Assembly (NCBI RefSeq): GCF_000020025.1 | Contig: NC_010628.1 | Coordinates: forward strand, 900,001 to 932,000 | Reading direction: 5' to 3' | Origin: Nostoc punctiforme PCC 73102 | GTDB taxonomy: Bacteria; Cyanobacteriota; Cyanobacteriia; Cyanobacteriales; Nostocaceae | DNA length: 32,000 bases | Shown here: positions 3,205-27,045 of the stretch, in pieces | Layout: each line of letters starts with the position of its first letter | Position numbering within the stretch: the first letter of the stretch is position 1 | Notes under the pieces: generated by a model | What the model saw: the letters and a program-made list of their open reading frames with translations, nothing else | Databases searched by the model: none | What the model was told of the DNA's origin: nothing | Program-made: the position numbers and the translations under genes

Positions 3205-3216
3205 AATGGTGAGTCT

Positions 3217-4653
3217 TTGATCGGAGCTTCTATTTCTGAGAAATCTTTAGATAAACTCCTGGTAAAACTAAACCAGCAAAAACCTCGTGCGATCGGCTTG
3301 GATATTTATCGTGATTTTCCGGCTGAAGATAAAAATTTAATTAGTCGTCTCAAACAGACTCAAAAGTTGATTGGAATATGCAAGGGGAGTGATACAACAA
3401 ATATCCAAGGCATTAAACCACCGCCAGAAATCCCCATAGTCAACCTGGGATTCAATGACTTTGTTCGCGATCGTGATGCGGTTATACGTCGGTATCTTCT
3501 GTTTATGAACCCAGAAGTTACATCGTTATGTCCTGCTTCCTATGCGTTTAGTCTACAACTGACTTTCCTCTATCTCCAATCCTTTGAAATTCGACCCCAA
3601 TTCACTCGTGCAGGGAATTTTCAGCTAGGCAATACTGTTTTTGAAAACTTTTCTCCCCGTAGTAGCTATAATATCGATCCCAATGGCGGTCAAATCTTAC
3701 TTAACTATCGTTCATCAAAGTACATAGCCGAACAGGTAACGCTAACCCAATTTTTATCTAGTCCAGTAAACTCCAGTCCTGCCAAAGACCGGATTGTTCT
3801 AATTGGTTCGGTGGCAAAGGGGGATTTTCCAGATACCTGGGCTACGCCCTATGGATCTCCCTTGAACGAGCAAATGCCAGGAGTATTAGTACAAGCGCAA
3901 ATGGTTAGCCAAATACTCAGTACAGTGTTAGATAACCGACCTTTAATCAAAATCTTGCCTGAACTAATGGAATGGTTGTGGATCTTTGGCTGGTCAACGG
4001 TAGGAGCTAGTATTAGCTTAGGGTTATGGAGATTGCGTTTTACACAACTATCAACTCCCAGTATTTTAATAACAATGACTTGCCTTGCTGGTATCTGTTA
4101 TTTGGCTCTTATGCTAGGTTGGTGGTTACCTCTAATTCCTGCAATGGTAACGCTACTAAGCTCTATGATTCCTATGCCAGTAGTACCTAGCTATCCTTTA
4201 GATCAACTCGACTTTCAGCGTACTTTAGAGTTAATAATAGAAGCTTATGATGGAAATTTAGCTGATGCTCGCGTAGCTGTTGGATATCTTATCAACTCCA
4301 GTCCCAGGAAAAGACCTGCTATTCAAGGATTAATTAGTGTTGCGATGGATGCGCTTAATTCTTGTCAGACAATTGAAGGCATAGCTACCGTTGCCAATCA
4401 GTTAGCCTGGATTCCCTCACCATTACCAAAGGCTATTAACTCTGTACTTCCCCTATTTTTGCAAATTAGCCAAGGAGTACGAACTGCTTTGGATGTTACG
4501 CCAGTAGTCCGTCAGCGCGAATTGCTTAACGAGTCGATAAATGCCTTGCGCTTTTTGTCAGCAAGTTTAGCTTCAGAAAGCTTTAGCCGTGAAGCTGCGA
4601 CTTTCAGAAGTATTGCGTTAGACTGGATAATAATTCTAATATATTCAGACTAA
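3217..4653 (+). CDS. CHASE2 extracytoplasmic sensor domain + 3 TM helices + ~150-aa C-terminal helical region. This is the C-terminal part of the split gene; no convincing start codon or RBS of its own.
   Basis: KPRAIGLDIYRDF and the following ~230 aa fit CHASE2. TM segments are LMEWLWIFGWSTVGASISLGLW, ILITMTCLAGICYLALMLGWW and LPLIPAMVTLLSSMI. Same frame as 358-3204. Confidence 0.7.
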   Translation: MIGASISEKSLDKLLVKLNQQKPRAIGLDIYRDFPAEDKNLISRLKQTQKLIGICKGSDTTNIQGIKPPPEIPIVNLGFNDFVRDRDAVIRRYLLFMNPEVTSLCPASYAFSLQLTFLYLQSFEIRPQFTRAGNFQLGNTVFENFSPRSSYNIDPNGGQILLNYRSSKYIAEQVTLTQFLSSPVNSSPAKDRIVLIGSVAKGDFPDTWATPYGSPLNEQMPGVLVQAQMVSQILSTVLDNRPLIKILPELMEWLWIFGWSTVGASISLGLWRLRFTQLSTPSILITMTCLAGICYLALMLGWWLPLIPAMVTLLSSMIPMPVVPSYPLDQLDFQRTLELIIEAYDGNLADARVAVGYLINSSPRKRPAIQGLISVAMDALNSCQTIEGIATVANQLAWIPSPLPKAINSVLPLFLQISQGVRTALDVTPVVRQRELLNESINALRFLSASLASESFSREAATFRSIALDWIIILIYSD

Positions 4654-8001: not shown

Positions 8002-8136
8002 GAGGCAATAGCTTTTCTGCCTATTGCCTCAATCTAGTTCTTCAGGAGTAGCCAATAAATTAACTCCTCATATATACATTGCCCAAAACCTTAAGGCTTT
8101 GGGCAAGTCTAGTCGGTAATTCTTTAAAGAATTGCC
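8002..8136 (+). promoter_or_regulatory. Four consecutive stem-loops or palindromes in the leader of the first cluster gene
   Basis: (1) GAGGCAATAG/CTATTGCCTC, 8002-8030, perfect 10 bp. (2) AGGAGT/ACTCCT, 8044-8068. (3) GCCCAAAACC/GGCTTTGGGC, 8081-8104, 9 of 10 bp with a TTAA loop. (4) GGTAATTCTTTAAAGAATTGCC palindrome, 8115-8136. Confidence 0.4.
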
Positions 8137-8195
8137 GAACTTTATCCTGTCTCAAAACCCAAGATACAAGTTCAGCAAATAAACAAACTACTTTT

Positions 8196-10685
8196 ATGGT
8201 AAACCGAAATAAATCTGTCAACAAGCAGCGCCAGCATTACCAATCTCTAGTAGCAACAGCATTGTTAACTGGTAGCTTTTTCCAATTTATTGCACCTGTA
8301 CTAGCTGACGGTACAGCTGGTGGTCAATCTATTAGTAACACAGCGACTGCTACCTACGAAGATCCCAACGCGCCAGGGACAACTATAAATGCCACCTCTA
8401 ATACTGTAACCGTCACTGTGGCAGAAGTTGCTGGGATCACCGTCACTGCGTCGGGTGTTACAGATAACAATGGTGGCGCTGTTGGAGTTAACGATTTACT
8501 AACTTACACCTACACCCTAACGAACGTAGGTAACGACCCCACCAAATTCCATATTCCCAACCAAGCAACGACAACCGGGCCTGGTACAGTTTCTGGTGTA
8601 CTTCCTGCTGATAAAAATGGGGTAACACCAGCTAGTGGCACACTGCAATACAGTACTGACGGTGGTGCAACTTGGACAAATGTAGCAGCAGGTGGTGTAG
8701 ATACAGCCTCAATTCCGGTTAGCGGTACTGTGTTGGTGCGTGTGCCAGTGACTGTACAAACTGGCGCTCAATCCGGTGACGTAATTAAAGTTACCCTTGG
8801 TAATACTCCTGGTGATGCCCAAAACCAACTCCGGAGTCCTGATGGTGGTGACGTTTATACTGTAGATAACGCTGATAACGCAGGTGGTGGAGAAGTTGCT
8901 GGCGCACCAGTTAACGGTACACGAGAATCTAGTATTACCCAGCAAATTCAAGTGGGTAACACTGTTAAAACCGTTGCTCTAGCCACAATACTCAAAACTC
9001 GAACAGCCTACAACGCTGGTGATGCTTCCGTACTCAATGATGACTTGCTGACTTATGGTTTAAGCTTGCGAGTTGAGAGCAATGACGTAACCAATCGGGG
9101 GCTAACACCCGCAGCTTTAGCTGGTACAAATATCAATGTAGATGGTAGTCTAGTTCCTCGCATCTTAGTTTCTGATGCACTTCCAGCATCCACAACTCTT
9201 AATGGGACTCCAACCGCTCCTTCAGGGTGGATAGTGGTTTATGCTGGCGAAGATCCTGCCACTACAACTGCCGATCAGTCTCTGTGGAAAACTGACAAAA
9301 CTCAAGTAACAGGCGGTATAGTCAAACGGGTTGGTTTTATTAACAATCCTAGCTCTATCTCTACAATTGCCACTGGCACAACTGTTACAGGCTTTACGGT
9401 GCAAGTAAAGACCACTGGAATCGCAGTAACAACACCGACAAATGTTAACAACATCGCTCAAGTGTTTGGTAAAACTGCTGGCGATCCAAATAGCCCCCTG
9501 CTCTTTGACGATTCAGGCGATCAAAACCCAGATAACATCAACCCCTCTACTGGAGCCTTTCCTACTACACCTGACATTGGTTATTATCCCACTACTCCCG
9601 GTAATGTTGACACAGGCAATAACAACCAAGGTGCTAATTCTGTTACAGGAAATGTCAACGTTTATACTGTTTCAGTCGCCCAGGCAAACTCAGTTTTAAA
9701 CGGGCCGAATAATGCACCGGATGCTACTGGCCCATCGGGTTTAACCAACGATGACTTCACTAACAAATCTTCCTTTGTTCCTCCCAACACACCGCCTGGT
9801 AGTACACTTGACCCGCAATCGGTTGGCTTCACTAATACAATTAAGAACAACGGCGCTAACCCTAACGACATCACAATAGTGCCAACCGCACCAGCAACAT
9901 TTACAGATTTGCCAAATAATACAAAGGTGACTGTTAGTTATAATAGTCAATCTGCTGTTTATACCTACAACAGTGCTACTGGTGTTTTTACCATAGCAAA
10001 CGGTAATACACCAATTAAAATCCCTGCTGTTCCTGCTGGTGGCATTGTTAATTATGGTGTAGAAGTTGACCTACCACCTGGTACGCAACTATCGACTGAT
10101 ATTGGTAAGGGCTTCCCAGTACCGATCACTGCTTTTATTGACACTGATAATAATGGTATACCGAATACTGCGGTTAATGGGGAAGCGTACAATATCTCCA
10201 TCGATCGCGTCTACACTGGCTTCTTAAAACTGTTGAAAATGTCACGAGTTCTACAAGGAAGTGGCCCAGCAGTGCAAGGGACTGATGGGACATTCAGTAT
10301 TACTCCGAAGAAGCCTGCACCAGGAAACATTATTGAGTACCAAATTCAATACACAAATATTTCTGATGCTCAATCTGGAACCGGTAACGTGATTTTGAAT
10401 GCTAACAAAGTTGTGATTACTGAAGATGGTACAGCAGGGGGCAACAACTGGGCGCTAGACAACGACAATAACACTCAAATTGATACTAGCAACATTGTTG
10501 GTTCAGCAAAGGATTCTGGGGCTTCAACTATCCAGTTCTTCAATGGTAATCCGGCTACTAACTCTAGTATCGATCAAACTGGAACCACGCTAAACAGTGA
10601 TGTCACAAAGTATGTAGATACTGCCACTGGACAGATTGCACCTGGTGTTCAAAGAACATTTACCTTCCAACGCAAGGTTAACTAG
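8196..10685 (+). CDS. Secreted multi-domain DUF11/TIGR01451-type repeat surface protein (829 aa from ATG 8196)
   Basis: Signal peptide MVNRNK...LLTGSFFQFIAPVLA|DG. N-terminal motif ISNTATATYEDPN...TSNTVTVTVAEVAGITV. DUF11-like cores LLTYTYTLTNVGNDP and PGNIIEYQIQYTNIS. T/N/G/S-rich composition. Confidence 0.8.
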   Translation: MVNRNKSVNKQRQHYQSLVATALLTGSFFQFIAPVLADGTAGGQSISNTATATYEDPNAPGTTINATSNTVTVTVAEVAGITVTASGVTDNNGGAVGVNDLLTYTYTLTNVGNDPTKFHIPNQATTTGPGTVSGVLPADKNGVTPASGTLQYSTDGGATWTNVAAGGVDTASIPVSGTVLVRVPVTVQTGAQSGDVIKVTLGNTPGDAQNQLRSPDGGDVYTVDNADNAGGGEVAGAPVNGTRESSITQQIQVGNTVKTVALATILKTRTAYNAGDASVLNDDLLTYGLSLRVESNDVTNRGLTPAALAGTNINVDGSLVPRILVSDALPASTTLNGTPTAPSGWIVVYAGEDPATTTADQSLWKTDKTQVTGGIVKRVGFINNPSSISTIATGTTVTGFTVQVKTTGIAVTTPTNVNNIAQVFGKTAGDPNSPLLFDDSGDQNPDNINPSTGAFPTTPDIGYYPTTPGNVDTGNNNQGANSVTGNVNVYTVSVAQANSVLNGPNNAPDATGPSGLTNDDFTNKSSFVPPNTPPGSTLDPQSVGFTNTIKNNGANPNDITIVPTAPATFTDLPNNTKVTVSYNSQSAVYTYNSATGVFTIANGNTPIKIPAVPAGGIVNYGVEVDLPPGTQLSTDIGKGFPVPITAFIDTDNNGIPNTAVNGEAYNISIDRVYTGFLKLLKMSRVLQGSGPAVQGTDGTFSITPKKPAPGNIIEYQIQYTNISDAQSGTGNVILNANKVVITEDGTAGGNNWALDNDNNTQIDTSNIVGSAKDSGASTIQFFNGNPATNSSIDQTGTTLNSDVTKYVDTATGQIAPGVQRTFTFQRKVN

Positions 10686-10697
10686 ATAGTTTGATTT

Positions 10698-10726
10698 CAC
10701 CCCTCTTTAATTTGCAAAGAGGGGTG
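10698..10726 (+). terminator. Strong hairpin 12 nt after the stop of the first cluster gene (terminator or attenuator)
   Basis: CACCCCTCTTT (10698-10708), loop AATTTGC, AAAGAGGGGTG (10716-10726): a perfect 11-bp stem. No clear U-tract follows. Confidence 0.5.
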
Positions 10727-10857
10727 TATAGCACATCTGTATTTGTAGCTGGTGCTTTAATCCTAAAGTGCCAACTACAAAATGATTGTTCTCCAGCGAA
10801 AACAGGGAAAGATAAATCAGCAATCGGCATTATGAAAGTTTTTTGAGGTTATTGATT

Positions 10858-11421
10858 ATGAAGCGTTTTTCTTTTGCAAGTTTAGGAGCGTTCGCACTTA
10901 TTGCTACAGTGCCATTTGTTAGTCAAGTGCCAGGAATCGCTTCTCTATGGCATTCTACCAGTGCTGTTGCCCAAAATGTCAAAACTCAAGGGCAAATACA
11001 ATTGCGCTTAGAAGCTGAGAAGCAAGTGATAGCACAGGATCAGCAGGGTAAGCAAAGTAAGACATGGCAACCTTTAAAAGGTCAAGCCGTGGTGCAACCA
11101 GGAGATGTGTTGCGATATACATTAAGTGGCGAAAATAAGAGCGATCGCCCCGTGAAGAATTTGATTCTCAATCAACCTATTCCTAAAGGAATGGTATACA
11201 TACTGAAATCTGCAATTGCCGCTAATGATACTAAAGTTACTTACAGCATTGATGGCGGACGCAGCTTTGTCGAAAATCCCACTGTTAAATTTACTCTTCC
11301 TGACGGGAAAGTGGAAACAAAACCAGCACCAGCAAATGTTTACACCCACATCCGTCTGCAAGTGTCATCAGTTCCAGCCAAGAAAACGGTTAAAGCTACT
11401 TATCAAGTCCAAGTGCGCTGA
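10858..11421 (+). CDS. Small secreted single-domain DUF11 protein (187 aa precursor)
   Basis: Signal peptide MKRFSFASLGAFALIATVPF. DUF11 core PGDVLRYTLSGENKSDRPVKNLILNQPIPKGMVYI. GAGG lies 8 nt upstream of ATG 10858. Confidence 0.75.
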   Translation: MKRFSFASLGAFALIATVPFVSQVPGIASLWHSTSAVAQNVKTQGQIQLRLEAEKQVIAQDQQGKQSKTWQPLKGQAVVQPGDVLRYTLSGENKSDRPVKNLILNQPIPKGMVYILKSAIAANDTKVTYSIDGGRSFVENPTVKFTLPDGKVETKPAPANVYTHIRLQVSSVPAKKTVKATYQVQVR

Positions 11422-11572
11422 TTCGTTATGCCTGATATCACCCGCCTGTAGAGACCTTTTTTTAAGGCAGTCAAGAGCGGAAAACAACCGTGCTTTATAA
11501 GGAGAGTCGGAGGGCATCTTCGATAGATAAACAAGTGCTTTTATTAACAAAAAAAGTGGCATTCCAGAGGAG

Positions 11573-13123
11573 ATGTGTTCAGTGAGCCATCCTCAAAAGC
11601 AAAAACAAATTACTTATAGGAGTAGCTGGTATCAAAGGTTAACAGCTACTGTTCTTCTGGGAAGTTTTTTGCAAACTACTATATCTATACCAGCGATCGC
11701 ACAACAGACTAACAATCTCGGTGCGTCTTTGCCATTAATAAATCAAGCTACTTATACTTATACAGACTCTGCTAATAATCAGAAATATGACGGAACTTCT
11801 AGTCAGCTTAATGTTACTCCTAGCCCATTATTCGATCCATTAGGGAGAATATTAGGTTGCGCTGGTACTATTTTGCCTGACTATACAGGTTTTTCAGTTG
11901 GCGTATACGAATCTAATCCTAGCGACCCAACGGGGACAGAATTAGGTGGCTTGCTTTCTTTGACTCGAACAGAGTTACCCGATATTCCTAATAACAACGT
12001 TCCTGGCGGTAAGTCGCCAAATACCGAGAATAGTAACCCCTACTTCGTTACTAATAACCCTGCGGGTGTCTACAATTTCCTACTCGATCCGAATAAGGGT
12101 CAAACCGATCCAGGTAGAACTTATATTTTTGTAGTTAATCCACCGCCAAATTCTATCTATAAGCAACGGCGGATCAAGATTGAAATCCTTGGTAGCACTG
12201 GCACACAAGGTAATAATATTGTGCGATATGTCGCTAGTTCTCTGGATGGCCAACCAATCAGCCTTACAGGTGAGACGAGGGTAGAGCAAACAGTTGTCTT
12301 AGTTCCGAATGCAGAAGTAGTAGGACTGGACTTATTAGCCTTTGAATTCAGTACAAATTTGTGCCAAGCCAATCAGTTGCAGATTGTCAAAACAGGCGAT
12401 CGCGCTACTGCTGAACCTGGGGATACGGTAATCTACCGCCTCTCAGTAAAAAATCTTGCTGATGCTGGTTTGAATAATATATTTGTCACCGACAATTTAC
12501 CTTTAGGATTCCAGTTTTTACCTAAATCTGTGCGCGGAGAGTTGGATGGCAAATCAGTTGCTATCACCTCAGAACGCAATGGAAACACAGTGACATTCCG
12601 CACAGACGTAACAATTCCTACGGAAAAAACTCTGAATATTGCTTACGCGGCTCAACTAACAGCCGATGCTGTGCGTGGTAACGGTCGCAATAGTGCGATC
12701 GTGAATGCCCAACGAGCTGATAACCGTTTTAGCACCAAGGATGGACCAGCAACGCACCAGTTAAAAATTCGTCCAGGAATCGTTTCTGATTGCGGCACGA
12801 TTATCGGTCGCGTGTTTATTGATAAAAACTTTGACGGTGAACAACAACCTGGTGAGCCTGGAGTCCCCAATGCAGTGATTTTTCTGGAGGACGGAAACCG
12901 AATCACCACAGATCCGAATGGTTTGTTCTCCTTAGCTAATGCCTTACCAGGAAGTCATACAGGCGTACTAGACCTCAGCAGTGTACCTGGTTATACCCTA
13001 GCTCCCAACCAAAAATTTCGTGAACGGAATAGCCAATCTCGCTTAGTACGTTTAGAACCTGGTGGCTTGGTACGTATGAATTTCGCTGTCACCCCCGCCT
13101 TCCAGGAGCCAGTCAAAAAATGA
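11573..13123 (+). CDS. Secreted protein with a DUF11 domain and an SdrD-B/Cna-B-like domain
   Basis: Its signal region YQRLTATVLLGSFLQTTISIPAIA is similar to that of the 8196 gene. N-terminal motif INQATYTYTDS...SSQLNVT. DUF11 core PGDTVIYRLSVKNLADAGLNNIFVTDNLPLGFQF. GRVFIDKNFDGEQQPGEPGVPNAVIFLEDGNRITTDPNGLFSL is SdrD-B-like. A GTG at 11582 is an alternative start. Confidence 0.75.
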   Translation: MCSVSHPQKQKQITYRSSWYQRLTATVLLGSFLQTTISIPAIAQQTNNLGASLPLINQATYTYTDSANNQKYDGTSSQLNVTPSPLFDPLGRILGCAGTILPDYTGFSVGVYESNPSDPTGTELGGLLSLTRTELPDIPNNNVPGGKSPNTENSNPYFVTNNPAGVYNFLLDPNKGQTDPGRTYIFVVNPPPNSIYKQRRIKIEILGSTGTQGNNIVRYVASSLDGQPISLTGETRVEQTVVLVPNAEVVGLDLLAFEFSTNLCQANQLQIVKTGDRATAEPGDTVIYRLSVKNLADAGLNNIFVTDNLPLGFQFLPKSVRGELDGKSVAITSERNGNTVTFRTDVTIPTEKTLNIAYAAQLTADAVRGNGRNSAIVNAQRADNRFSTKDGPATHQLKIRPGIVSDCGTIIGRVFIDKNFDGEQQPGEPGVPNAVIFLEDGNRITTDPNGLFSLANALPGSHTGVLDLSSVPGYTLAPNQKFRERNSQSRLVRLEPGGLVRMNFAVTPAFQEPVKK

Positions 13124-16100
13124 AACCCAGACTGCACCATACAAATATTTTCAACCTAAAGATGATGGGGGTGATGCCAATAGCTCTCAGCCTCGTTTTG
13201 TATCCTGCCATAGTTAAGGCAGAACCTACAAATGAAAATCTTTTTTCCCCCGAATCGCCTTCGCAATCAGACAAGGGTGTCGAAGATCCTGACTTTTCAA
13301 GGGATCTAGAAAACCTCTCTTTTAAAACGGGAGAGGCTTTGAATTCTCCCCCGTCTTTACAAGCTACGCTGTACACACAAGTTATCGAATTACCCCACCC
13401 TAACCCTCGCCTTGGAAAGGGGAGGGAACTAGATTTTCTTTCCACCCTTTCCAAGGGGGGATTAAGGGGGGTAAAACCCGGATCTCAAAGTAACTCCGAT
13501 TTGCGTGTACACGGTAGGTTTTTACAAGAGAAGGGGGTTAGAGGTTTGGTTTTTCCAGATGATGTGAAAAATCAGGATGAGGATCAAGCAGATCGGAATA
13601 AAGTTGCTGAAAAAAGTATGGATTCAAGTTCTCCCCATCTTTTGGGAAGTTCTGACAAGCAACTTCTACCTCTTGAACTTTCTTCAACTAATACTTCAAT
13701 TCCAGATGTTCAACCAAGTGAAACGGAAATACAAGGATTTCAACCAGCAACTTCTGTTGATTTACCCAGAGACTTAGGTAAACTAGCAGTCATCAAGAAT
13801 GAAGGACGCAAAGACACAAAAATAGAGCTTCAAACTTCTCCAAGGGAAATACAAGGATTTCAACCAGCGTTTTCTGCTCAATTACCTAGAGGGTTACGTA
13901 AAATAGCTGGAGTAATTGAGGAAAATCAGAAAATTCCCCCCACTTCCCCCATCTCCACAGGAATAAAATTCCTGATGCCAACGGCTAACAACATTGTGGA
14001 TGTTCCTGCTACCACAGTGATTGTGCAATTTCCCGTTGGAAGCACAGTAGAATTACGGTCTAATGGCGTATTAGTCGATCCTTCTTCAATTGGACGAACA
14101 GAAACCGATGCCAGTACTAACTTAGTAACGCAGACATGGTATGGTGTTTCGTTAAAAGAAGGTAATAACACCATCTCTGCACAAGTAGTAGGAGGGACAG
14201 AACCTCCTGTAACGGTTCAAGTCGTAGTCCGGGGAGCGCCACAGAAACTAACCTTAGAAACTGTTGAGTCTCGTATCCCGGCGGATGGACGTTCTACAGC
14301 TACAATCAGGGGTCAACTGATCGATGCAAGTGGTAATCGCTCTAATCGTGATGCTGTTATCACTTTGATACCTACTGCTGGGGAGTTGGTTGGGAAAGAC
14401 TTCAAACCCGATGAACCCGGATTTCAAGTAGAGGCGAAAGCGGGGCAATTTACGGCTAAGTTGCGATCGCAACTCAAAGCCCAAACTGTCACAATTCGCG
14501 CCATCGCTAATAATTTAGAAGCCTTTACTCAATTACAATTTGAAACATCACTGCGTCCGAGTTTGGTTACTGGCGTAATAGATTTACGTTTGGGCGCTAG
14601 AGGTACAGATTATTATGGTAGTTTCCGTGATTTTCTCCCGCCTGACAAAGATAACAGAACGCAATTAGATTTCCATTCAGCGATATTTGCCACTGGTGCG
14701 ATCGGAGAATGGTTGTTTACAGGCGCATACAACAGTTCTCGTAACCTCAATGAAGATTGCAACTGCGATAATCGCCTGTTTAGAACTTACCAATCTAGCG
14801 AGCAAAATTATCCTGTCTATGGCGATAGCTCGCAAGTTGATGTTGTTGCTCCTTCCATTGACAGCCTATATGTGCGTCTTGAGCGTTCAACTGGTATCCC
14901 CGGAGCCGATCCTGATTATGCCATGTGGGGTGACTACAATACAGAAGAATTTGCGCGGCGATCGCAGCAATTTACTTCTATCACCCGTCAACTCCACGGT
15001 TTTAAGGCTAACTACAACTTAGGGAATCTACAAATTACAGGTTTGTATGGCAACCACTTAGAAGCTTTCCAACGAGATACCATTGCTCCCGATGGCACTA
15101 GCGGTTATTACTTCCTCTCTCGCAGAATACTACAACCAGGTAGTGAAAATGTCTTTATTGAGTTAGAAGAACTCAATCGTCCTGGGACTGTACTAGAACG
15201 GAAACAGCTTAACCGCGGTCCAGACTATGAAATCGACTACGATCGCGGTACCTTATTGTTCCGCGAACCTATCCTTCGTACCGATATCGATCAAACCGGA
15301 CAAGTATTGGTACGCCGGATTGTTGTTAGCTATCAATATGACAGCGAAGATTCTGATAGCAATATCTATGCTGGTCGTTTGCAATATAATCTTTCCCGCA
15401 AACTTAACCAGGAAAGTTGGATAGGAGCAACTTATGTCCAAGAAAATCAGGGAGTACGTGACTTTCAACTCTACGGTGCAGATGCGCTGATTTCTTTGGG
15501 TAATCAAGGTAGATTAATTGCAGAATATGCCCATTCCACTAATGATTCTGATGTTGTAGGAAAGGTTAGTGGTGAAGCGTATCGGTTGGAAGCTGAGGGA
15601 CAAATTACTGACGGGATTCAAGGTCGTGCCTATTATCGCTTTGCCGATACAGGTTTTGCTAATAATGCCACTATCAGCTTTGTCCCAGGACAAACCCGTT
15701 ATGGAGCGCAGGTTACAGCTAAACTCAGTTCAACCACTAACGTCAGGGCTCAGTACGACCACGAAGACAATTTTGGCATTGCTCCCCAACCCTTAGATAC
15801 CTTTGAAGAACTGTTTGCACCCCGTTATGAGTCGATACCTGGTAGTAAAGTTGATAATTCCTTAACGACAATTTCCGCCGGGATTCAACAACGCTTGGGT
15901 AGTGCCATTATTGATGTGGATTGGATTCATCGTCATCGAGAAGACCGCATTCCCGACAGCGCCCTCAGTGGTACTTCGGATCAATTGCGATCGCGTTTTA
16001 CAGTTCCTATTGCTAAAAATCTGACTTTCCAAGCCCAAAATGAAATCAGTTTATCTTCCCAAAAAGATAGTGTTTACCCTGACCGTACCATCTTCGGGCT

Positions 16101-17274
16101 AAATTGGGCAGCAATTCCTGGTGTAAATATCAGTCTGGCCCAACAGTTTTACACTAGTGGTCAATATTCGGGTAATTCCATCACCAGCTTGAGTGTCAAC
16201 GGTGAACACAAACTCGGATCGGATACTACCTTGACTGGTCGTTACTCAATTTTAGGTGGTGCGAATGAAATGACTACCCAAGGGGCGATAGGTCTAAATA
16301 ACCGTTGGACTATTGCTTCGGGATTGCGGCTGAATGTTGCTTACGAACACGTATTTGGCAACTTCTTCGGACGGACTGCGGCAGGTCAACAATATGCCCA
16401 ACCCTTCGCCTTTGGTCAATCAGCATCTGCGATCGGATTTGATGGTGGCGATAGCTACAGTGTGGGTCTAGAATACAGTGATAATCCGCAGTTTCAAGCC
16501 AGTGCCCGTTACGAACATCGTTCTTCTTCTGGTGGTAGCAATACAGTAATTACCGCAGGTGCTGCGGGTAAAATTTCTCCGGCTCTCACAGCATTGGTAC
16601 GTTATCAACAAGCTGGTTCATCCAATCAAAAGCTTTCGGGATTGGGGGATACAGCTACTTTGAAGTTGGGACTAGCTTATCGCGACCCCAATAGCGATAA
16701 ATTTAATGCCTTATTGCGTTATGAATATCGCAAAAATCCATCAACTATCCCTGACACCATCCTCTTAGGTAGTGGTACAGGTTCCGAAGACCATACTTTT
16801 GCTTTGGAAGCTATTTATGCTCCTAACTGGCAATGGGAATTCTATGGTAAATATGCCTTGCGTAACAGCACTTCTTACATAGCCAGCGATTTAGCTGGTA
16901 CAAATACGGTAAATTTGGGACAATTACGCGCTACCTATCGTTTGGGATATAGCTGGGATTTAGTGGGTGAGGCTCGTGTAATTAGTCAGTCTAGTTACAG
17001 CGAAACAGGCTTTATTGTAGAAACAGGCTATTATCTCACGCCTAACCTGCGTGTTTCTGCTGGATATGTATTTGGTAAAGTTGATGACCGGGATTTCTCA
17101 GGAACACGTTCCGCAGGTGGTGCATATTTGGGTGTCAGCGTCAAACTCAATGAATTATTTGATGGCTTTGGACAGCAAAAACCAGTGCCACGTCAGCCAC
17201 AGGAATCTGCAATGAAAACTTTGGTAGGTAAACTCAAGGCCGCAACGAAGGGGATGCAAAAGCGTGAAATATAA
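13120..17274 (+). CDS. 1384-aa predicted outer-membrane protein: signal peptide, ~250-aa low-complexity linker, two Ig-like domains (the second Big_1/invasin-like), and an ~880-aa beta-barrel-like region
   Basis: The ATG overlaps the upstream stop (ATGA at 13120-13123), with AGGAG at 13104-13108. Signal MMGVMPIALSLVLYPAIVKA. IPADGRSTATIRGQLIDASGNRSNRDAVITL is Big_1-like. From about aa 480 there are alternating-hydrophobic strands with Y/G/N/D turns, ending ...AGYVFGKVDDRDF...GAYLGVSVKLNELF. Confidence 0.8.
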   Translation: MKPRLHHTNIFNLKMMGVMPIALSLVLYPAIVKAEPTNENLFSPESPSQSDKGVEDPDFSRDLENLSFKTGEALNSPPSLQATLYTQVIELPHPNPRLGKGRELDFLSTLSKGGLRGVKPGSQSNSDLRVHGRFLQEKGVRGLVFPDDVKNQDEDQADRNKVAEKSMDSSSPHLLGSSDKQLLPLELSSTNTSIPDVQPSETEIQGFQPATSVDLPRDLGKLAVIKNEGRKDTKIELQTSPREIQGFQPAFSAQLPRGLRKIAGVIEENQKIPPTSPISTGIKFLMPTANNIVDVPATTVIVQFPVGSTVELRSNGVLVDPSSIGRTETDASTNLVTQTWYGVSLKEGNNTISAQVVGGTEPPVTVQVVVRGAPQKLTLETVESRIPADGRSTATIRGQLIDASGNRSNRDAVITLIPTAGELVGKDFKPDEPGFQVEAKAGQFTAKLRSQLKAQTVTIRAIANNLEAFTQLQFETSLRPSLVTGVIDLRLGARGTDYYGSFRDFLPPDKDNRTQLDFHSAIFATGAIGEWLFTGAYNSSRNLNEDCNCDNRLFRTYQSSEQNYPVYGDSSQVDVVAPSIDSLYVRLERSTGIPGADPDYAMWGDYNTEEFARRSQQFTSITRQLHGFKANYNLGNLQITGLYGNHLEAFQRDTIAPDGTSGYYFLSRRILQPGSENVFIELEELNRPGTVLERKQLNRGPDYEIDYDRGTLLFREPILRTDIDQTGQVLVRRIVVSYQYDSEDSDSNIYAGRLQYNLSRKLNQESWIGATYVQENQGVRDFQLYGADALISLGNQGRLIAEYAHSTNDSDVVGKVSGEAYRLEAEGQITDGIQGRAYYRFADTGFANNATISFVPGQTRYGAQVTAKLSSTTNVRAQYDHEDNFGIAPQPLDTFEELFAPRYESIPGSKVDNSLTTISAGIQQRLGSAIIDVDWIHRHREDRIPDSALSGTSDQLRSRFTVPIAKNLTFQAQNEISLSSQKDSVYPDRTIFGLNWAAIPGVNISLAQQFYTSGQYSGNSITSLSVNGEHKLGSDTTLTGRYSILGGANEMTTQGAIGLNNRWTIASGLRLNVAYEHVFGNFFGRTAAGQQYAQPFAFGQSASAIGFDGGDSYSVGLEYSDNPQFQASARYEHRSSSGGSNTVITAGAAGKISPALTALVRYQQAGSSNQKLSGLGDTATLKLGLAYRDPNSDKFNALLRYEYRKNPSTIPDTILLGSGTGSEDHTFALEAIYAPNWQWEFYGKYALRNSTSYIASDLAGTNTVNLGQLRATYRLGYSWDLVGEARVISQSSYSETGFIVETGYYLTPNLRVSAGYVFGKVDDRDFSGTRSAGGAYLGVSVKLNELFDGFGQQKPVPRQPQESAMKTLVGKLKAATKGMQKREI
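13370..13511. mobile_element. MITE-like G/C-tract palindromic element embedded in-frame in the linker of the 1384-aa gene
   Basis: Terminal inverted repeats TGTACACACAA..ATCG (13370-13387) and CGATTTGCGTGTACA (13497-13511). The core CCACCCTTTCCAAGGGGGGATTAAGGGGGG...GGATCTC resembles, in reverse orientation, the core of the 153-289 element. It translates to LPHPNPRLGKGRELDFLSTLSKGGLRGVKPG. Confidence 0.5.
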
Positions 17275-17294
17275 AACGATTATTTAAAAACAAT

Positions 17295-17321
17295 ACCATT
17301 GTAAATCTGAATACAAATGGT
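17295..17321 (+). terminator. Weak A/T-rich hairpin after the 1384-aa gene
   Basis: ACCATTGTA (17295-17303) pairs with TACAAATGGT (17312-17321), with one bulge. Confidence 0.25.
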
Positions 17322-17444
17322 AGATTATCTACGATTTTGGGAAAGCTAAAGACTAAAGATTAGTTTGAGGAGAATCAGTCCTCATTGATGATTATGGTTC
17401 AGTTAATCAGCATTTTTTAAAGGTTATTTTATGGTGATTTACTA

Positions 17445-19874
17445 ATGAAGAATTTATGGCAAAATATTAATATTTTTAGCTGGGGACTTCTCGGTGCGAC
17501 ATTAGTACTTCAACCTACAGTAGCGCAAGCTCAATATATCCAGCGATCGTTCCTAAACCCCAGCTTTGAGCAACCTGTATTTGGTAATGTTGGTCAACAA
17601 TGTTACGTTCAAGTATCGCCAGGTATTATCCCTGGTTGGGAAACGACTCATGGCTCAGTCAAGGCGGGAACAGGTACTTGTAGTGGTTATGTATCTCCAG
17701 GAAATGTACCACTGATTGAGATTTGGAAAACAGGATTTAATGGTGCTAGCACAGCAACGATACCAACTAGTGCAGGAAATCAATTTGCTGAGTTAAATGC
17801 AGAGCAAAATTCTGAGTTGTATCAGAATATATGCCTAATTAAAGATGAGACAATTACCTTCTCTCTTTTACATCGTGGGCGGTCAAGCTCATCTGTGGCT
17901 GATGTGGCCAATTTTTTAATTGGACTAAATACCAATCCAACATCAACTATTTTTGGCAGATTCTCAACAACTAGCAATGGAACAGTTACGGCACAACCAG
18001 TAGCACAGAATGGTGCAACTATTCCTACTGTAACTAACAATAATGCAGGAAATGGCTGGGTAAGATACACTGGTACAGTGCCTTACACTGGTGCTAGTGG
18101 GAATCAACCTGTAGGATTTGCGGCTGTTTCCACGGCGGGCGGAAACAATACTATAGGCAACTTCCTTGATGAAGTCCAATTTGCTGGTAAACCGGTGCTT
18201 GAGTTCACGGCGAGTTCAGGTGGTGCAGCAGAATCGGAAACTAACCCTACTACTAACCCACCTAAACTTAGGATTGTTGGTTTAGTGCCAACTGGTGGGA
18301 TCAGTGTTTCAATTTCAGTTTCTGGTACAGCCGTTTTGGGTACAGACTACAACACAATATCAAACACATCCACTTTTAATATCAATATTCCTGCGGGCAA
18401 CTACGACGGCAGTGATGCTACTAGTGTCTTTACCATTCCTTTTACTGTTATTAACAATAACGTTCCTCAAGGTGTGAGGACAATCGTATTCACTATACAA
18501 CCTTCATCTAGTTTTTTCGCCAGTTCAACAACAACTTGTGGCGGTTCCCCAACGATCGCTTCTAGCTACACAATTTATGATGATGATTTCCTCAGTGGTA
18601 AGGTTTGGGATGATGCCGATAATAGCGCTAACAATACTTTTACTAATATCAATACTGGCTCAGAAACTGGCACTAATGCTGGTGGATTGTTAAATGCTAT
18701 TCTTGTAGATTCTAATAATAAAGTATTAAAAACAATACCTGTTGCAGCAGATGGTACTTACACCTTTCTCGATGTTCCCCTGAATCAAAACAACGTTAAA
18801 ATTATCTTGAGTACAACTGCTGGCACTGTAGGTAATACTGCCCCTGCACCATCCCTCCCTTCTAACTGGATCAACACTAGCCCACTAACGACAGCTACTT
18901 TTAATACTGGTACAAACATCTCTAGTAAGGACTTTGGAATTGAGCAGTTACCTGATACTAACAATGTCAATGGATCGACAACAACAAATCCAGGGGGAAC
19001 CAATACTGTACAAGTACCAACATTATCAGGCACTGACCCGGAAGATGGGAACCTTAGTTCTGGCAACAGTTTCAAGATTGTTAGTCTGCCAAGTAATGGG
19101 ACACTGTACTACAACGGTGTAGCTGTGACAGCGAATCAAATTATTACTAATTACGATTCGACCAAATTAACAGTAGATCCGAATATAGATGGCGCTATAA
19201 CCATCACTTTCACTGTAGCCGCAATAGACAAAGCAGGCAAAGAAGATCCCACACCTGCTACGGTAACTATGCCATTAACTGCGTCATCATCTGGCAAACC
19301 TCAGTTAATTTTAGTTAAACGCATCACCCGAATTAACAGCCAGAATTTAACCAACATTGTAGATGGTCGCAGCGACGTTCCTTCTAATGCTGCTAACTAC
19401 GTAGCATCTCCACGTGACACTGATGATGATAGTAGTAACACTTGGCCCACTAATTACTTGCGCGGATTGATTAACGCTGGGATAGTCAAACCAGGAGATG
19501 AGTTAGAGTACACTATCTACTTCCTTTCCAATGGTCTAGGTAATGCAACTAATGTTCAAATCTGTGATTTAGTTCCTGTCAATAGTACTTTTATTCCTAC
19601 TGCCTTTAGTAGTATGACTCCTAATGATGGTGGTTTAGCAGGAGCAGATCAAGGTATTGCTCTTGCGCTTAGTTCTAGCACTCCTACGGTTTATCTGACT
19701 AATGCCCAAGATGCAGATCGCGGACGTTTTTATACTGCTAACGAGACAGTCCCATCTTACTGCGGCGCTAACATCAATGGGGCAGTGGTGGTGAATATTA
19801 CACGGAGTCCAGATTTACCCAATCTCGTCAAAGATTTTTACGGTTTTGTCCGTTTTCGCGCTAAGGTGAAATAG
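17445..19874 (+). CDS. Secreted multi-domain surface protein: lectin/jelly-roll-like N-domain, Calx-beta, SdrD-B-like, Ig/cadherin-like and C-terminal DUF11
   Basis: Signal MKNLWQNINIFSWGLLGATLVLQPTVAQA. FLNPSFEQP...PGWET...IEIWKTGF...GNQFAELNAEQNSELYQ. Calx-beta motif SGTAVLGTDY. GKVWDDADNS...DGTYTFLDVP. DUF11 core PGDELEYTIYFLSNGLGNATNVQICDLVP. Confidence 0.8.
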   Translation: MKNLWQNINIFSWGLLGATLVLQPTVAQAQYIQRSFLNPSFEQPVFGNVGQQCYVQVSPGIIPGWETTHGSVKAGTGTCSGYVSPGNVPLIEIWKTGFNGASTATIPTSAGNQFAELNAEQNSELYQNICLIKDETITFSLLHRGRSSSSVADVANFLIGLNTNPTSTIFGRFSTTSNGTVTAQPVAQNGATIPTVTNNNAGNGWVRYTGTVPYTGASGNQPVGFAAVSTAGGNNTIGNFLDEVQFAGKPVLEFTASSGGAAESETNPTTNPPKLRIVGLVPTGGISVSISVSGTAVLGTDYNTISNTSTFNINIPAGNYDGSDATSVFTIPFTVINNNVPQGVRTIVFTIQPSSSFFASSTTTCGGSPTIASSYTIYDDDFLSGKVWDDADNSANNTFTNINTGSETGTNAGGLLNAILVDSNNKVLKTIPVAADGTYTFLDVPLNQNNVKIILSTTAGTVGNTAPAPSLPSNWINTSPLTTATFNTGTNISSKDFGIEQLPDTNNVNGSTTTNPGGTNTVQVPTLSGTDPEDGNLSSGNSFKIVSLPSNGTLYYNGVAVTANQIITNYDSTKLTVDPNIDGAITITFTVAAIDKAGKEDPTPATVTMPLTASSSGKPQLILVKRITRINSQNLTNIVDGRSDVPSNAANYVASPRDTDDDSSNTWPTNYLRGLINAGIVKPGDELEYTIYFLSNGLGNATNVQICDLVPVNSTFIPTAFSSMTPNDGGLAGADQGIALALSSSTPTVYLTNAQDADRGRFYTANETVPSYCGANINGAVVVNITRSPDLPNLVKDFYGFVRFRAKVK

Positions 19875-23123: not shown

Positions 23124-24126
23124 AGAGTTGTCGGGAAATAAAAGATAAGTGAGGCAATGCTGGTCTTGTAATTGGGATTCTCTTAAGCAGCCATCAAGTA
23201 GAAGTTCCATAATCCTGCTGCGGTCAGCATCAAATGGTCATCAAAGTTTTCAATCCGATTACGATAAATGACACTGGCGGCGTTGTAGCGCTTCACACCA
23301 GCAAAGGCATTTTCGCAAACTACACGGGATTGACTCAATTGACGATTCTCCGTTTTTTGAAGGTCACTTAACTTGCCCCCTTTGGGCTTTTTGTGAGGAA
23401 GATGGAGATTGTCATACTGCTTCTGTAATCCCTGAAAGCCCGAGTCTACTTCAATCGGAATTTCATCAGGCACACTACCTGCAATGTCATCTTCGTCATG
23501 AAAACGTTTGTCATGCAGTTTGCCTTCTCGTGCTTTGCTTAAGATCAAGACCCGTTTGGTTTCATCAACTGCCGCCAAGTGTTTACGCGTATGACGTTTC
23601 TTTTTACCGGAGTAATTCTGTTGTTGTTGTTCTCTTTCTTGAGGTCGCGCAATTGGGCGTTCTGTCCCATCAATCATCACTCGTTGCACTCCTGGAAAGC
23701 GTGACAAAAATGCTTCAATGCTTTCGAGATGGCGTTCCGGCAGCGCCATCTTCTGTCCCAAAGCCGCTTCTAATATTGGCTGCAATCGATGCATCCACTC
23801 ATGTGCCTGGGAGCGATGCATATCAAAGAGCAGTCCCGCCACATCAAAGGTCGGATAACATTTGAAATAGAAAAGGATGAAAAACAATTTGTCTTGGGCT
23901 GTAAGTAAGCGGGCTTTGCGTCCTCCACCCAGGCCACGTTGACGAGGCTTGGCCTGTTGAGTATCTAGGTACATCGTGGTAAACGTGGGCAAAAGGGCAT
24001 CAAATGCTTTCCGGTTCAACCCAGTTAATGCCCTCAACAGTCGGTCTTGCTTCAGCGCACCTTCAATATTCAGCATCATTCTTCCCTACCACTGCTGTCT
24101 ATTCTCTCTTATTTCCCGACAAGTCT
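23124..24126 (-). mobile_element. IS element (~1.0 kb), IS5-family / Harbinger-like (DDE_Tnp_4-type transposase)
   Basis: Inverted repeats AGAGTTGTCGGGAAATAA (23124-) and the reverse complement of ...TTATTTCCCGACAAGTCT (-24126), 17 of 18 bp matching. Flanking direct repeat AAT (23121-23123 and 24127-24129). Boundaries are ambiguous by +/-2 nt because AATAG is shared on both sides. Confidence 0.8.
23183..24079 (-). CDS. DDE transposase (HTH_Tnp_4 + DDE_Tnp_4-like)
   Basis: 298 aa with motifs MIDGTERPI, YSGKKKRHTRK, VDSGFQGL, PHKKPKGGKL and NRQLSQSRVVCENAFAGVKRY. Confidence 0.9.
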   Translation of the reverse strand: MMLNIEGALKQDRLLRALTGLNRKAFDALLPTFTTMYLDTQQAKPRQRGLGGGRKARLLTAQDKLFFILFYFKCYPTFDVAGLLFDMHRSQAHEWMHRLQPILEAALGQKMALPERHLESIEAFLSRFPGVQRVMIDGTERPIARPQEREQQQQNYSGKKKRHTRKHLAAVDETKRVLILSKAREGKLHDKRFHDEDDIAGSVPDEIPIEVDSGFQGLQKQYDNLHLPHKKPKGGKLSDLQKTENRQLSQSRVVCENAFAGVKRYNAASVIYRNRIENFDDHLMLTAAGLWNFYLMAA

Positions 24127-24930: not shown

Positions 24931-27045
24931 TTAATCACCTGGAACCAACAACATCCGCGCCTCAATTGCTTCCCAGGTTTGGGGTGACACCCGCACTGCT
25001 GCTTGTTTGCACTGGATGATGAGGTGATTGGCGTAGAGATAATTGCCGAATGCTTCCGCTTCTGCCTCAGATAAATCGATCATTTCTAGGGTGAGATTGA
25101 AAGCATAAAGTAAGGTTTGTTGTAGGTGTTTAGCAAATGCCAGACGCGCTTCCCTTGGCTGTTTAACATCAGGAACTTTAGCTCTCAGTGCTTCTAGACG
25201 GGCAATCAGCACAGTAAAGTTGATGTTATTGAAGATTTTTAATTTTTCTAGTTGACGAGAGTAGTTGATAGCTTCGGCGTTGGCGTAGGCGTTGGCGTAG
25301 GCGTTGGCGTAGTCTTTGGCGTTGGCTTTGTTGTAGGCTTTGGCGTAGGCGTAGGCGTTGGCGTTGGCGTAGGCGTTGGCGATGGCGTTGGCGTAGTCTT
25401 TGGCGTTGGCGTTGGCGTAGGCGTTGGCGTAGGCGTTGGCGTAGGCGTTGGCGATCGTCATCGCAACTGCACGTTTACCAACAGGTTTAAAATCCCCTGT
25501 CGATCCAACTGTTACCTGTTCTGCCCAGTTTAATAAAGCTTGCAACTTCGGGATATTAATATACTTTTGCGCTTCTTTTTCCATTAGCAACAGCAAATTA
25601 TCTGCACCACCACGCATTAACCCAGCTACTAACAAAAACACCTCTTTCCAGCGCTTATCTATTAGATGTTCAGTAACTAACTTATCAACTTGGCGATGGT
25701 CATCAATATATTGTGCTGTTAAATATTCTTGTAGCGTTAGATGAGAGAAGGAAAAGACATCCTCGGCTCGTTCTACCAAAATTCCTTGTTGAATTGCGAT
25801 CGCATTCAGCACTGATTCTCCATCTAAATGCTGAGGTGCATTCAGATTACTCGCTAAAAATGTTTTAATTTGTTGAACAATATCTCGTTGTGAAAAGAAT
25901 AGCCTGTCAGACTCAAAACCTGTATAAGCAATTTCTGATAGTAATATCTCTTCTAATTCTGTATGCAGTCCTTGATAAATCTCTTCTCTGAGAATTCGCT
26001 TTTCCGATGCCCACTCTTCTAGCAATATCCGCAGTGCCTTCCGGTAAAGAACACTGCGATTATCTGGAAAACTTTGGGAACGGTCATAAACTAAACACAG
26101 AAATGTCAGCAATAAAGGTGTGTGCGCCAACTCTTTAGCAGCTTCATGTTCTGGTTTTTGTAGTAACTCCCAGCATTTCTCGCCTGTCTTCGCCTGCTTG
26201 TCTGCTTCACAATGAAACCAGTTATCAATAAATTGCTGAATTTGAGCATTGTCGAAATCTGCCATTGCCACATCACTAAAGCGGCGAAAAGCGCTGCGAT
26301 AAGCCGCCGTGCGACAGGAGGCAATAAAACGATTTTTATCGTACTTATCAACAAAATTTTGAATTTCGCTAATTGCCTCAGTCAAATTTCTTGTTGGTAC
26401 TTCATCTAACCCATCCAGCAAAATTAGTAATTTACCTGCTTCTAAAGCTTTGGCTGTAAATTTATCTGGTGATGGAAAGCCGCAAATACGAAACTCTTCA
26501 GTAATAAAAGTTTCAATATTTATATTGCTAGATGCAAACCTTTTCAATTCGATAAAAACTGGAATACAGTCGTGTTTAAATCCTCCTTTTTTACCTTGGA
26601 GCGCTTCTAGTCCCATCTTCCGCACAAATGTAGACTTTCCTGCACCAGGGCCACCAAGTACCATCAGATATTGCTTATCGTTAGCAACTTTTATTCCTTC
26701 TTGTTTGCCACAATTTTGAGGTTGAAATCTGCGGTTGTTAGCTTGGCGATATAAATTTTCTAAATTTTCAATAGATTCAAAGCTCTGAATAGCATCATCA
26801 TCTAAAAACTGCACAGCTGTATAGAGCGATTCCAGCTTGACAGGTTCACGCATTCCTAATACTTTGAGAATGCCATGCCGTTCTTCGTAGTTCTTTTCAT
26901 ATTGCTTTGATGCAGCAAAAATTAACTTCTTGGTTTTTTCATCCAGAGTTTTACCCAATCCTACTAAAACCTGACCACCGATTTGGGCAAACATAGCGGC
27001 GACACCGCTAACGGCTGATATCGCCCAAGGTTCCATTCCTGTCAT
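24931..27045 (-). CDS. NACHT-family STAND NTPase with a hydrophobic N-terminal segment and a C-terminal helical region carrying an (X-Ala)n repeat insert
   Basis: 704 aa. Walker [11 protein letters not shown] (aa ~130-139). Walker [12 protein letters not shown]. Hydrophobic N-terminus [26 protein letters not shown]. Confidence 0.85.
25275..25453 (-). repeat. Hexanucleotide (GGCGTT/GGCGTA) microsatellite-like tract within the NACHT CDS, encoding ANAYANAY...
   Basis: About 30 consecutive 6-nt units with few substitutions. On the coding strand these are AACGCC (N-A) and TACGCC (Y-A). Peptide: [62 protein letters not shown]. Confidence 0.9.

Follow-up and report, generated by a model that had tools for sequence, protein, structure and literature searches.

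In the 32,000-nucleotide stretch of Nostoc punctiforme PCC 73102 analysed here (contig NC_010628.1, positions 900,001 to 932,000; hereafter the window), an open reading frame (ORF) encodes a protein of 1384 amino acids (aa), hereafter the barrel protein, which is best read as the membrane part of a conserved module of five genes. With modest confidence, we propose that its very large predicted β-barrel acts as the outer-membrane translocator and anchor for a partner protein, encoded by the preceding gene, within a conserved module of CLIPPER surface proteins. The module spans positions 8079-19874 and consists of genes for a DUF7925 protein, a small CLIPPER protein, the partner, the barrel protein and a CLIPPER-ended protein, and it is bordered on the other strand by unrelated genes. 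The barrel family is large, uncharacterised and tightly coupled to CLIPPER surface proteins, and the meaning of the barrel gene comes from the five-gene module, which is overlooked when the gene is viewed alone. A first-pass annotation of this DNA had described the ORF as encoding a signal peptide and two immunoglobulin (Ig)-like domains ahead of a very large barrel; the ORF exists as described, and this architecture is supported by the translation and by an AlphaFold2 model. We found no publication on this barrel family, although our coverage of the literature is incomplete and this absence is therefore not proof.

The tight coupling to the partner is visible at the level of gene structure, as the stop codon of the partner gene overlaps the start codon of the barrel gene (ATGA). 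Partner residues 269-509 match residues 328-564 of the fused relative P0192 (E=1e-32), residues 270-1345 of the barrel protein match its residues 599-1624 (E=7e-85), and the two matches are separated on P0192 by ~35 residues. As P0192 is colinear with both proteins, the Nostoc partner and barrel protein represent the split form of a single gene, and the signal peptide and linker of the barrel protein are the parts gained at the split. A scripted check of the 62 GTDB loci with sufficient upstream DNA found the partner either fused to the barrel (25 loci) or encoded directly upstream as a homologue (36 loci), that is, in 61 of the 62, while the remaining locus has a 3263-aa upstream ORF without a match to the queries. 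Fusion, or an overlap or adjacency of 1-4 nucleotides (nt), was seen in Thalassovita, Marinimicrobia, Hydrogenophaga, Steroidobacteraceae and a second cyanobacterium, with a small 140-200-aa protein encoded further upstream and often an OmpA gene downstream in the same loci; across the 62 loci, an OmpA gene lies 3' of the barrel gene in 32.

The other module genes recur as well. At least 20 proteobacterial or verrucomicrobial loci, as well as loci L002, L004 and L007, encode a full-length homologue of the 192-aa CLIPPER protein upstream of the barrel. The 868-aa ORF matches DUF7925 in Pfam (E=2.9e-64, 216 bits), a domain defined on a protein of Nostoc PCC 7120 (PMC12617251), and a DUF7925 gene is found in the same order at the cyanobacterial locus L004. 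Both the 192- and the 809-aa ORFs score above the NCBIfam cutoff for TIGR01451. Directly 3' of the fused barrel gene of a Polaromonas locus (L085, 13011-17225), a 1404-aa homologue of the 809-aa protein is encoded (E=1e-45), and hence the fifth Nostoc module gene is conserved across phyla in at least one case.

The partner and its relatives are composed of domain types, namely CLIPPER/DUF11, CnaB-type SdrD_B and CarboxypepD_reg, that are building blocks of fibrillar surface adhesins. In the 516-aa Nostoc partner, the DUF11 match reaches 44.3 bits (cutoff 24.6) and the TIGR01451 match 51 bits, and K273, D307 and N373, a candidate Lys-Asp-Asn isopeptide triad, align with conserved K, D and N residues in P0192, in a spacing that resembles that of 9IFR (PMC12617251). 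Some partners are 2000-3300 aa long and carry 8 or more CLIPPER domains, and one ends in two OmpA domains. This composition, a CLIPPER/SdrD_B stalk sometimes with an OmpA end, is like that of Gram-negative CLIPPER adhesins such as B9T28_05395 of Acinetobacter silvestris (PMC12617251, PMC10952558). DUF11/CLIPPER fibrillar adhesins are common in Gram-negative bacteria, and many DUF11-stalk adhesins of Proteobacteria have a C-terminal OmpA-like "anchor" and are functionally cryptic; both studies describe the adhesins and name no outer-membrane route for them (PMC10952558, PMC12617251).

When 1.84 billion cluster representatives were searched, the barrel family comprised 2060 clusters (50% identity) at E<=1e-3 and 677 at E<=1e-30. 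Named members of the family belong to Cyanobacteria, Alpha-, Beta-, Gamma- and Deltaproteobacteria (including Stenotrophomonas, Xanthomonas, Lysobacter, Janthinobacterium, Hydrogenophaga, Rhodoferax, Gallionella and Thalassovita), Verrucomicrobiota, Acidobacteria, Nitrospirota, Lentisphaerota, Marinimicrobia and Ignavibacteriae, and all of them are from two-membrane (diderm) bacteria. Two peptide patterns taken from the proteobacterial alignment A4 alone retrieved at least 583 relatives from GTDB species genomes. Distant members take one of two forms, either the Ig-Ig-barrel unit by itself (~1000-1150 aa) or proteins of 1600-3400 aa in which DUF11/CLIPPER, DUF7507, DUF7927, CarboxypepD_reg and SdrD_B domains are fused before that unit.

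The barrel itself was modelled with AlphaFold2 on aa 290-1384, using a 34-sequence alignment that reached down to ~25% identity (mean predicted local distance difference test score, pLDDT, 77; predicted template-modelling score, pTM, 0.69). By DSSP, the barrel-like run that had been noticed at aa ~480-1340 is modelled as ~35-40 long antiparallel strands over aa ~482-1342 (~860 residues). The strands are dyad-amphipathic, scoring 2.10 versus 1.47 ± 0.17 in within-strand shuffles, a significant difference, and aromatic residues make up 11% of the long β region. The last strand, GAYLGVSVK, leads into LNELF and then a basic tail of 39 aa, in agreement with the terminal strand VSVKLNELF and ~40-aa tail of the first-pass annotation; in some relatives an OmpA domain follows the barrel at the position of this tail (P0201, P0362 and others). 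We estimate from the DSSP string that the predicted wall comprises 36, 38 or 40 strands in total: because Ig2 and the C-terminus must share a membrane side and the linker from the insert to the next strand has 5 residues, the number of wall strands before the insert must be even, which leads to these totals. The barrel is predicted to be bigger than those of ushers (24 strands) and inverse autotransporters (12 strands), as had been claimed. The record for a single-chain barrel is held by SprA, which has 36 strands (bioRxiv 10.64898/2026.03.07.710327).

The β-rich insert at aa 583-723 is the most conserved block of the family. Modelled alone, it reached a pLDDT of 85.5, and it gave no significant match among PDB structures (Foldseek, E<0.01), PDB sequences or Pfam. 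The insert is a candidate plug or docking domain of the modelled barrel; its analogy with the usher plug is unproven, as it has no structural or sequence relative. The loop motif YPVYGDSS preceding it forms (near-)invariant columns in the alignments A1 and A2 (Y275, P276, Y278, G279, D280 and S282) and was among the patterns that retrieved the GTDB relatives. In the loop before this motif lie the only two cysteines of the barrel protein, in a CNC at aa 547-549 (14758-14766); EDCNCDN is kept in Nostocales, and the first Cys more widely among cyanobacterial members.

The barrel is not covered by any sequence family in Pfam, NCBIfam or the PDB. A marginal Pfam match to Porin_4 at aa 1106-1249 (27.7 bits versus a cutoff of 27) and a DUF2490 match below the Pfam threshold were the exceptions, an NCBIfam scan of the barrel protein gave no match, and a single-sequence search of the PDB with the barrel returned a designed barrel alone (E=0.55). 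The family profile, searched against all PDB sequences, found Ig2-like domains of GH2 enzymes and nothing for the barrel. In Foldseek, all best matches of the long β region were outer-membrane barrels, with template-modelling (TM) scores <=0.3, in the order SlpA (8agd, 8ae1, 7zgx), SprA and then MtrB, LptD, FimD and TonB-dependent transporters; scores were ~0.2 for SlpA, 0.09-0.16 for SprA and 0.14-0.25 for Cir, FauA and BtuB. The other matches were GH2 or invasin Ig domains that align to Ig2. Together with the lack of any Pfam match to usher (Usher, PapC_N, PapC_C), intimin/invasin (IAT_beta, LysM), LptD, SprA, Autotransporter (PF03797), ShlB/POTRA, Omp85 or TonB-receptor domains on the barrel protein, best TM-scores of ~0.2-0.3 bear out the earlier view that it lies outside the named classes. 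Modelling, Foldseek and sequence searches yielded neither a soluble solenoid or propeller nor clear homology to a characterised outer-membrane family.

Ahead of the barrel, the N-terminus of the protein (...ALSLVLYPAIVKA/EP) reads as a Sec-type signal, and it is followed by a linker (aa ~35-289) that is rich in S (10.9%), L (10.9%), P (9.4%) and E (7.4%) as well as in G, D, K and Q. The linker had been described as ~250 residues of S/P/E/K/Q-rich low complexity; the ~255-aa stretch has this composition, whereas "low complexity" was an overstatement for what is a hypervariable and probably disordered sequence. It is the sole poorly conserved stretch and the fast-evolving part of an otherwise conserved protein. 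Related strains show large indels in it, the start of Ig1 varies between aa 133 and aa 300 among other Nostocales, and the linker is not present in relatives outside the Nostocales, with ~35 aa in its place in fused relatives. The 40-aa (120-nt) tandem duplication reported within it is real and variable in copy number, since an identical 23-nt repeat occurs at 13726 and 13846 (exact 23-mer search; chance expectation 0) and aligned related Nostoc strains carry 1, 2 or 3 units (for example homologues P0414 and P0007). The two units share 17/40 aa and 69/120 nt (58%), a divergence too high for Tandem Repeats Finder, which missed the 120-nt repeat. A further 35-aa indel is found upstream of the repeat among Nostoc strains.

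Both Ig-like modules, the second of which had been called Big_1/invasin-like, are β-sandwiches in the AlphaFold2 model. As a single sequence, Ig2 gave weak, below-threshold Pfam matches to Invasin_D3, Big_1 and Glyco_hydro2_C5, and within the family profile it matched C-terminal Ig domains of GH2 glycosidases among PDB sequences (E=1e-11). In many relatives the DUF11/SdrD_B protein is fused ahead of the Ig domains, and in the window it is the product of the overlapping upstream gene, which points to the Ig domains as the probable junction between the two. The speculation that they replace a periplasmic chaperone found no support and looks less likely than such a docking role.

Table 1. Features of the barrel gene and its module, in positions of the window.
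Feature	Position (nt)	Strand	Details and basis
Module gene 1, secreted DUF7925 protein (CnaA-like, isopeptide-type), 868-aa ORF	8079..10685	+	Likely start ATG 8196
Stem-loop, perfect 11-bp stem, 7-nt loop	10698..10726	+	-20.8 kcal/mol, z = -4.1 versus shuffles
Small single-domain DUF11/CLIPPER protein, 192-aa ORF	10843..11421	+	NCBIfam TIGR01451; likely start ATG 10858
Partner gene, 516-aa secreted protein, DUF11/CLIPPER aa 269-375 and SdrD_B aa 413-486	11573..13123	+	Pfam, NCBIfam
Barrel ORF, Nostoc punctiforme PCC 73102	13120..17274	+	1384 aa
Predicted Sec signal peptide MKPRLHHTNIFNLKMMGVMPIALSLVLYPAIVKA/EP, aa 1-34 (...AIVKA/EP)	13120..13221	+	Read from translation
Hypervariable linker, aa 35-289, probably disordered	13222..13986	+	Composition, strain alignment
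Two tandem 40-aa (120-nt) units, EIQGFQPA.S..LPR.L.K.A	13726..13965	+	23-mer search, strain alignment
Ig-like domain 1, aa 291-370	13990..14229	+	AlphaFold2 seven-strand β-sandwich, pLDDT ~87; conserved family-wide
Ig-like domain 2 (Big_1 / Invasin_D3 / GH2_C5-like), aa 376-475	14245..14544	+	AlphaFold2 β-sandwich, pLDDT ~88
First three long strands, aa 482-492, 515-528, 531-538	14563..14733	+	DSSP on AlphaFold2 model
Loop motif YPVYGDSS, aa 564-571, conserved family-wide	14809..14832	+	Alignments A1, A2
β-rich insert, aa 583-723, GxSGxYxLS...GSExVxIE...DYxIDYxxGTxxF	14866..15288	+	Eleven shorter strands
Predicted main barrel wall, 32 long antiparallel strands, aa 729-1342	15304..17145	+	DSSP on AlphaFold2 model
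Basic C-terminal tail, aa 1346-1384	17155..17271	+	Low-confidence helix in AlphaFold2 model
Module gene 5, 809-aa secreted protein ending in DUF11-type domain	17445..19874	+	TIGR01451 aa 680-719

We envisage that the barrel would be placed in the outer membrane as both conduit and anchor, autotransporter-like in the fused relatives and two-partner-like in the split form found here. The partner and the other CLIPPER proteins would be exported by Sec and then pass outward through the wide lumen, so that the set displayed by N. punctiforme would comprise the 516-aa partner and the 868-, 192- and 809-aa CLIPPER-type proteins. The C-terminal end of the partner would remain docked to the Ig domains, at the mouth of the barrel on the periplasmic side. 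A very wide barrel could pass or house folded Ig domains, and its lumen might be plugged by the insert, the Ig domains or both, with the SdrD_B end of the partner and the small CLIPPER protein as further candidates for closing the pore. OmpA domains bind peptidoglycan in the periplasm, and where OmpA-type modules are present, they would hold the assembly on the cell wall. The periplasm is far too narrow for partners of 2000-3300 aa with at least 8 CLIPPER domains. The simplest topology would have the N-terminal stalk outside, the C-terminal end at or below the barrel and the chain through the lumen.

Such an arrangement would be akin to type Va and Vb secretion, in which, as in the fused relatives, a passenger of repeated β-domains is N-terminal to a C-terminal barrel. 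The window resembles type Vb in particular, with a passenger-like protein encoded by the adjacent gene and N-terminal domains on the barrel protein, and in both cases export would be Sec-dependent, as presumed here, without an ATPase in the module. However, the barrel protein lacks Autotransporter, ShlB/POTRA and Omp85 homology and has ~36-40 predicted strands instead of 12 or 16, its N-terminal domains are Ig-like and not POTRA, the passengers are CnaA/CnaB-type Ig domains and not β-helices, and the lumen could be wide enough to pass folded domains. SprA of the type IX secretion system (T9SS) offers a parallel, being comparable in predicted barrel size, among the top Foldseek matches and likewise serving adhesin-type cargo that is possibly folded. 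In contrast to SprA, there is no sequence match, the TM-scores are the low ones given above, neighbouring proteins carry no T9SS C-terminal sorting domains (Por_secre_tail; Pfam, NCBIfam), and the barrel family is also found in phyla that lack T9SS, cyanobacteria and Proteobacteria among them. With inverse autotransporters (intimin/invasin), the barrel protein shares a Big_1/Invasin_D3-like Ig domain joined to a barrel. Inverse autotransporters have a barrel of 12 strands followed by a C-terminal Big_1 passenger, whereas here the Ig domains precede a predicted barrel that is ~3 times larger and lacks IAT_beta and LysM.

Several points weigh against a role in translocation and anchoring. Outer-membrane location, closure of the barrel, strand number and the positions of the Ig domains and the insert all rest on the model (DSSP, pLDDT), which has low confidence at model residues 740-820. 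The gene coupling establishes a functional link without a direction, and the partner may be periplasmic or may cap the barrel from outside. Moreover, at 516 aa the Nostoc partner is short, it carries neither an OmpA nor an SLH module, and the idea of a long fibre running through the barrel comes from distant relatives. The SLH domain between the CLIPPER part and the barrel of P0190 fits only if the chain traverses the lumen, and the module shows no evident energy source or chaperone.

An alternative that we consider unlikely is that the barrel protein serves as an usher-like platform on which the 192-aa CLIPPER protein and other module proteins would be polymerised and extruded, with the Ig domains as a subunit-receiving or chaperone-like site. 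The conservation across phyla of a small (~160-200 aa) single-domain CLIPPER protein in the module is in keeping with this idea, as is the architecture, since β-sandwich domains, a large barrel and a conserved β-rich insert after the first strands echo the N-terminal domain, barrel and plug of PapC and FimD. FimD is also among the Foldseek matches, and ushers, too, are encoded beside Ig-fold surface-fibre proteins. In addition, the stem-loop directly after the DUF7925 gene, as is often found behind major-subunit genes, has no T-run and may act as an attenuator or mRNA stabiliser that raises expression of the first gene above the rest. However, no Usher, PapC_N or PapC_C match was obtained, neither the module nor its flanks contain an ORF for a chaperone, and sortases or other polymerising enzymes are not encoded in the modules. 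The insert showed no structural similarity to the usher plug in Foldseek (E<0.01), and ~36-40 predicted strands stand against the 24 of ushers. Furthermore, the strict 1:1 fusion or coupling of barrel and partner suggests a stoichiometric complex and not a platform for many subunits.

A second alternative, which we also judge to be improbable, is a tether between outer membrane and cell wall combined with a large porin in the manner of SlpA and OmpM, with the CLIPPER partner as a rigid periplasmic or surface strut. SlpA of Deinococcus, a barrel of 30 strands, provided the best structural matches, and large barrels combined with peptidoglycan-binding modules are found in some members of our family, fused or in neighbouring genes: an SLH domain precedes the Ig domains in one distant relative (P0190), and OmpA occurs in many. 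The long N-terminal linker of the Nostocales could, moreover, span a thick periplasm. Yet TM-scores to SlpA are just ~0.2, the barrel protein of the window has no SLH or OmpA domain (Pfam) and no coiled coil, and SlpA and OmpM have no such coupling to CLIPPER proteins, the defining feature of the family. With their adhesin-type N-terminal domains, partners of 2000-3300 aa are typical of surface fibrils and not of periplasmic struts (PMC12617251). Judging from the match lists, the family is also patchy within phyla and not universal, unlike core envelope tethers.

That the protein is a TonB-dependent receptor importing nutrients is very improbable, despite most homologue records at NCBI and UniRef carrying this name. 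Foldseek did match Cir, FauA and BtuB (E ~1e-6), and a 480-aa protein with a TonB C-terminal domain (TonB_C) is encoded at 29344-30786 (+), 12 kb 3' of the barrel gene; we found no link between it and the module. However, TM-scores of this order reflect generic barrel similarity, and the gene context is adhesin-type and not transport-type. As there is no Plug (PF07715) or TonB_dep_Rec (PF00593) match in Pfam, nor an NCBIfam match, at E<=0.01, and as the predicted ~35-40 strands disagree with the 22 of such receptors, the label is unsupported and looks like a propagated misannotation. A soluble secreted β-solenoid, propeller or sheet protein without a membrane barrel is scarcely credible, for although the outer-membrane location is a prediction and the model has low-confidence regions, the top structural matches over the long β region are all outer-membrane barrels, the strands are alternately amphipathic with 11% aromatic residues, periplasmic-type OmpA modules follow the C-terminal strand in relatives, and the named members are all diderm.

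With regard to regulation and surroundings, neither the window nor the 720-nt region upstream matched a riboswitch or other RNA family in Rfam, and in a promoter/terminator consensus scan the number of sites was not above that in shuffles. At two loci of Steroidobacteraceae type, the partner, barrel and OmpA genes are directly followed by a small gene for a GGDEF protein (diguanylate cyclase; L005, 13916-14437; L006, 14560-15081), and such neighbours hint at control of the module by cyclic di-GMP in some lineages. In the window, the module is set among STAND-NTPase and mobile-element genes. At the left end, what reads as one gene (358-4653, +) is divided by an in-frame TAA at 3202-3204 into a 948-aa ORF (TPR, nSTAND1 NTPase and the first 45 positions of CHASE2) and a 478-aa ORF with the rest of CHASE2, in the same frame and 12 nt apart. 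A pseudogene, a sequencing error and read-through are the possible explanations. On the other side, a DDE_Tnp_4/IS5-type transposase gene (23183-24079, -) adjoins one for a NACHT-family NTPase (24931-27045, -).

Going beyond the single locus, we tentatively suggest that the family might form the core of an unrecognised secretion-and-anchoring pathway, in which a single-chain barrel of at least 36 strands exports and holds CnaA/CnaB-type, isopeptide-stabilised adhesins. Should the strand count prove right, single-chain outer-membrane barrels would reach beyond their known size range, and questions would arise about folding that depends on the barrel assembly machinery (BAM) and about the sealing of so wide a pore. 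Our analysis also flags the widespread misannotation as "TonB-dependent receptor", and homologues are found in genetically tractable genera, such as Stenotrophomonas, Janthinobacterium and Xanthomonas, as well as in Nostoc punctiforme. The family provides a concrete candidate for how Gram-negative DUF11/CLIPPER adhesins cross the outer membrane and, if the suggested pathway is true, would represent a diderm counterpart of the sortase-based display of Gram-positive bacteria in cyanobacteria, Proteobacteria, Verrucomicrobiota, Acidobacteria, Nitrospirota, Marinimicrobia and Ignavibacteriae.

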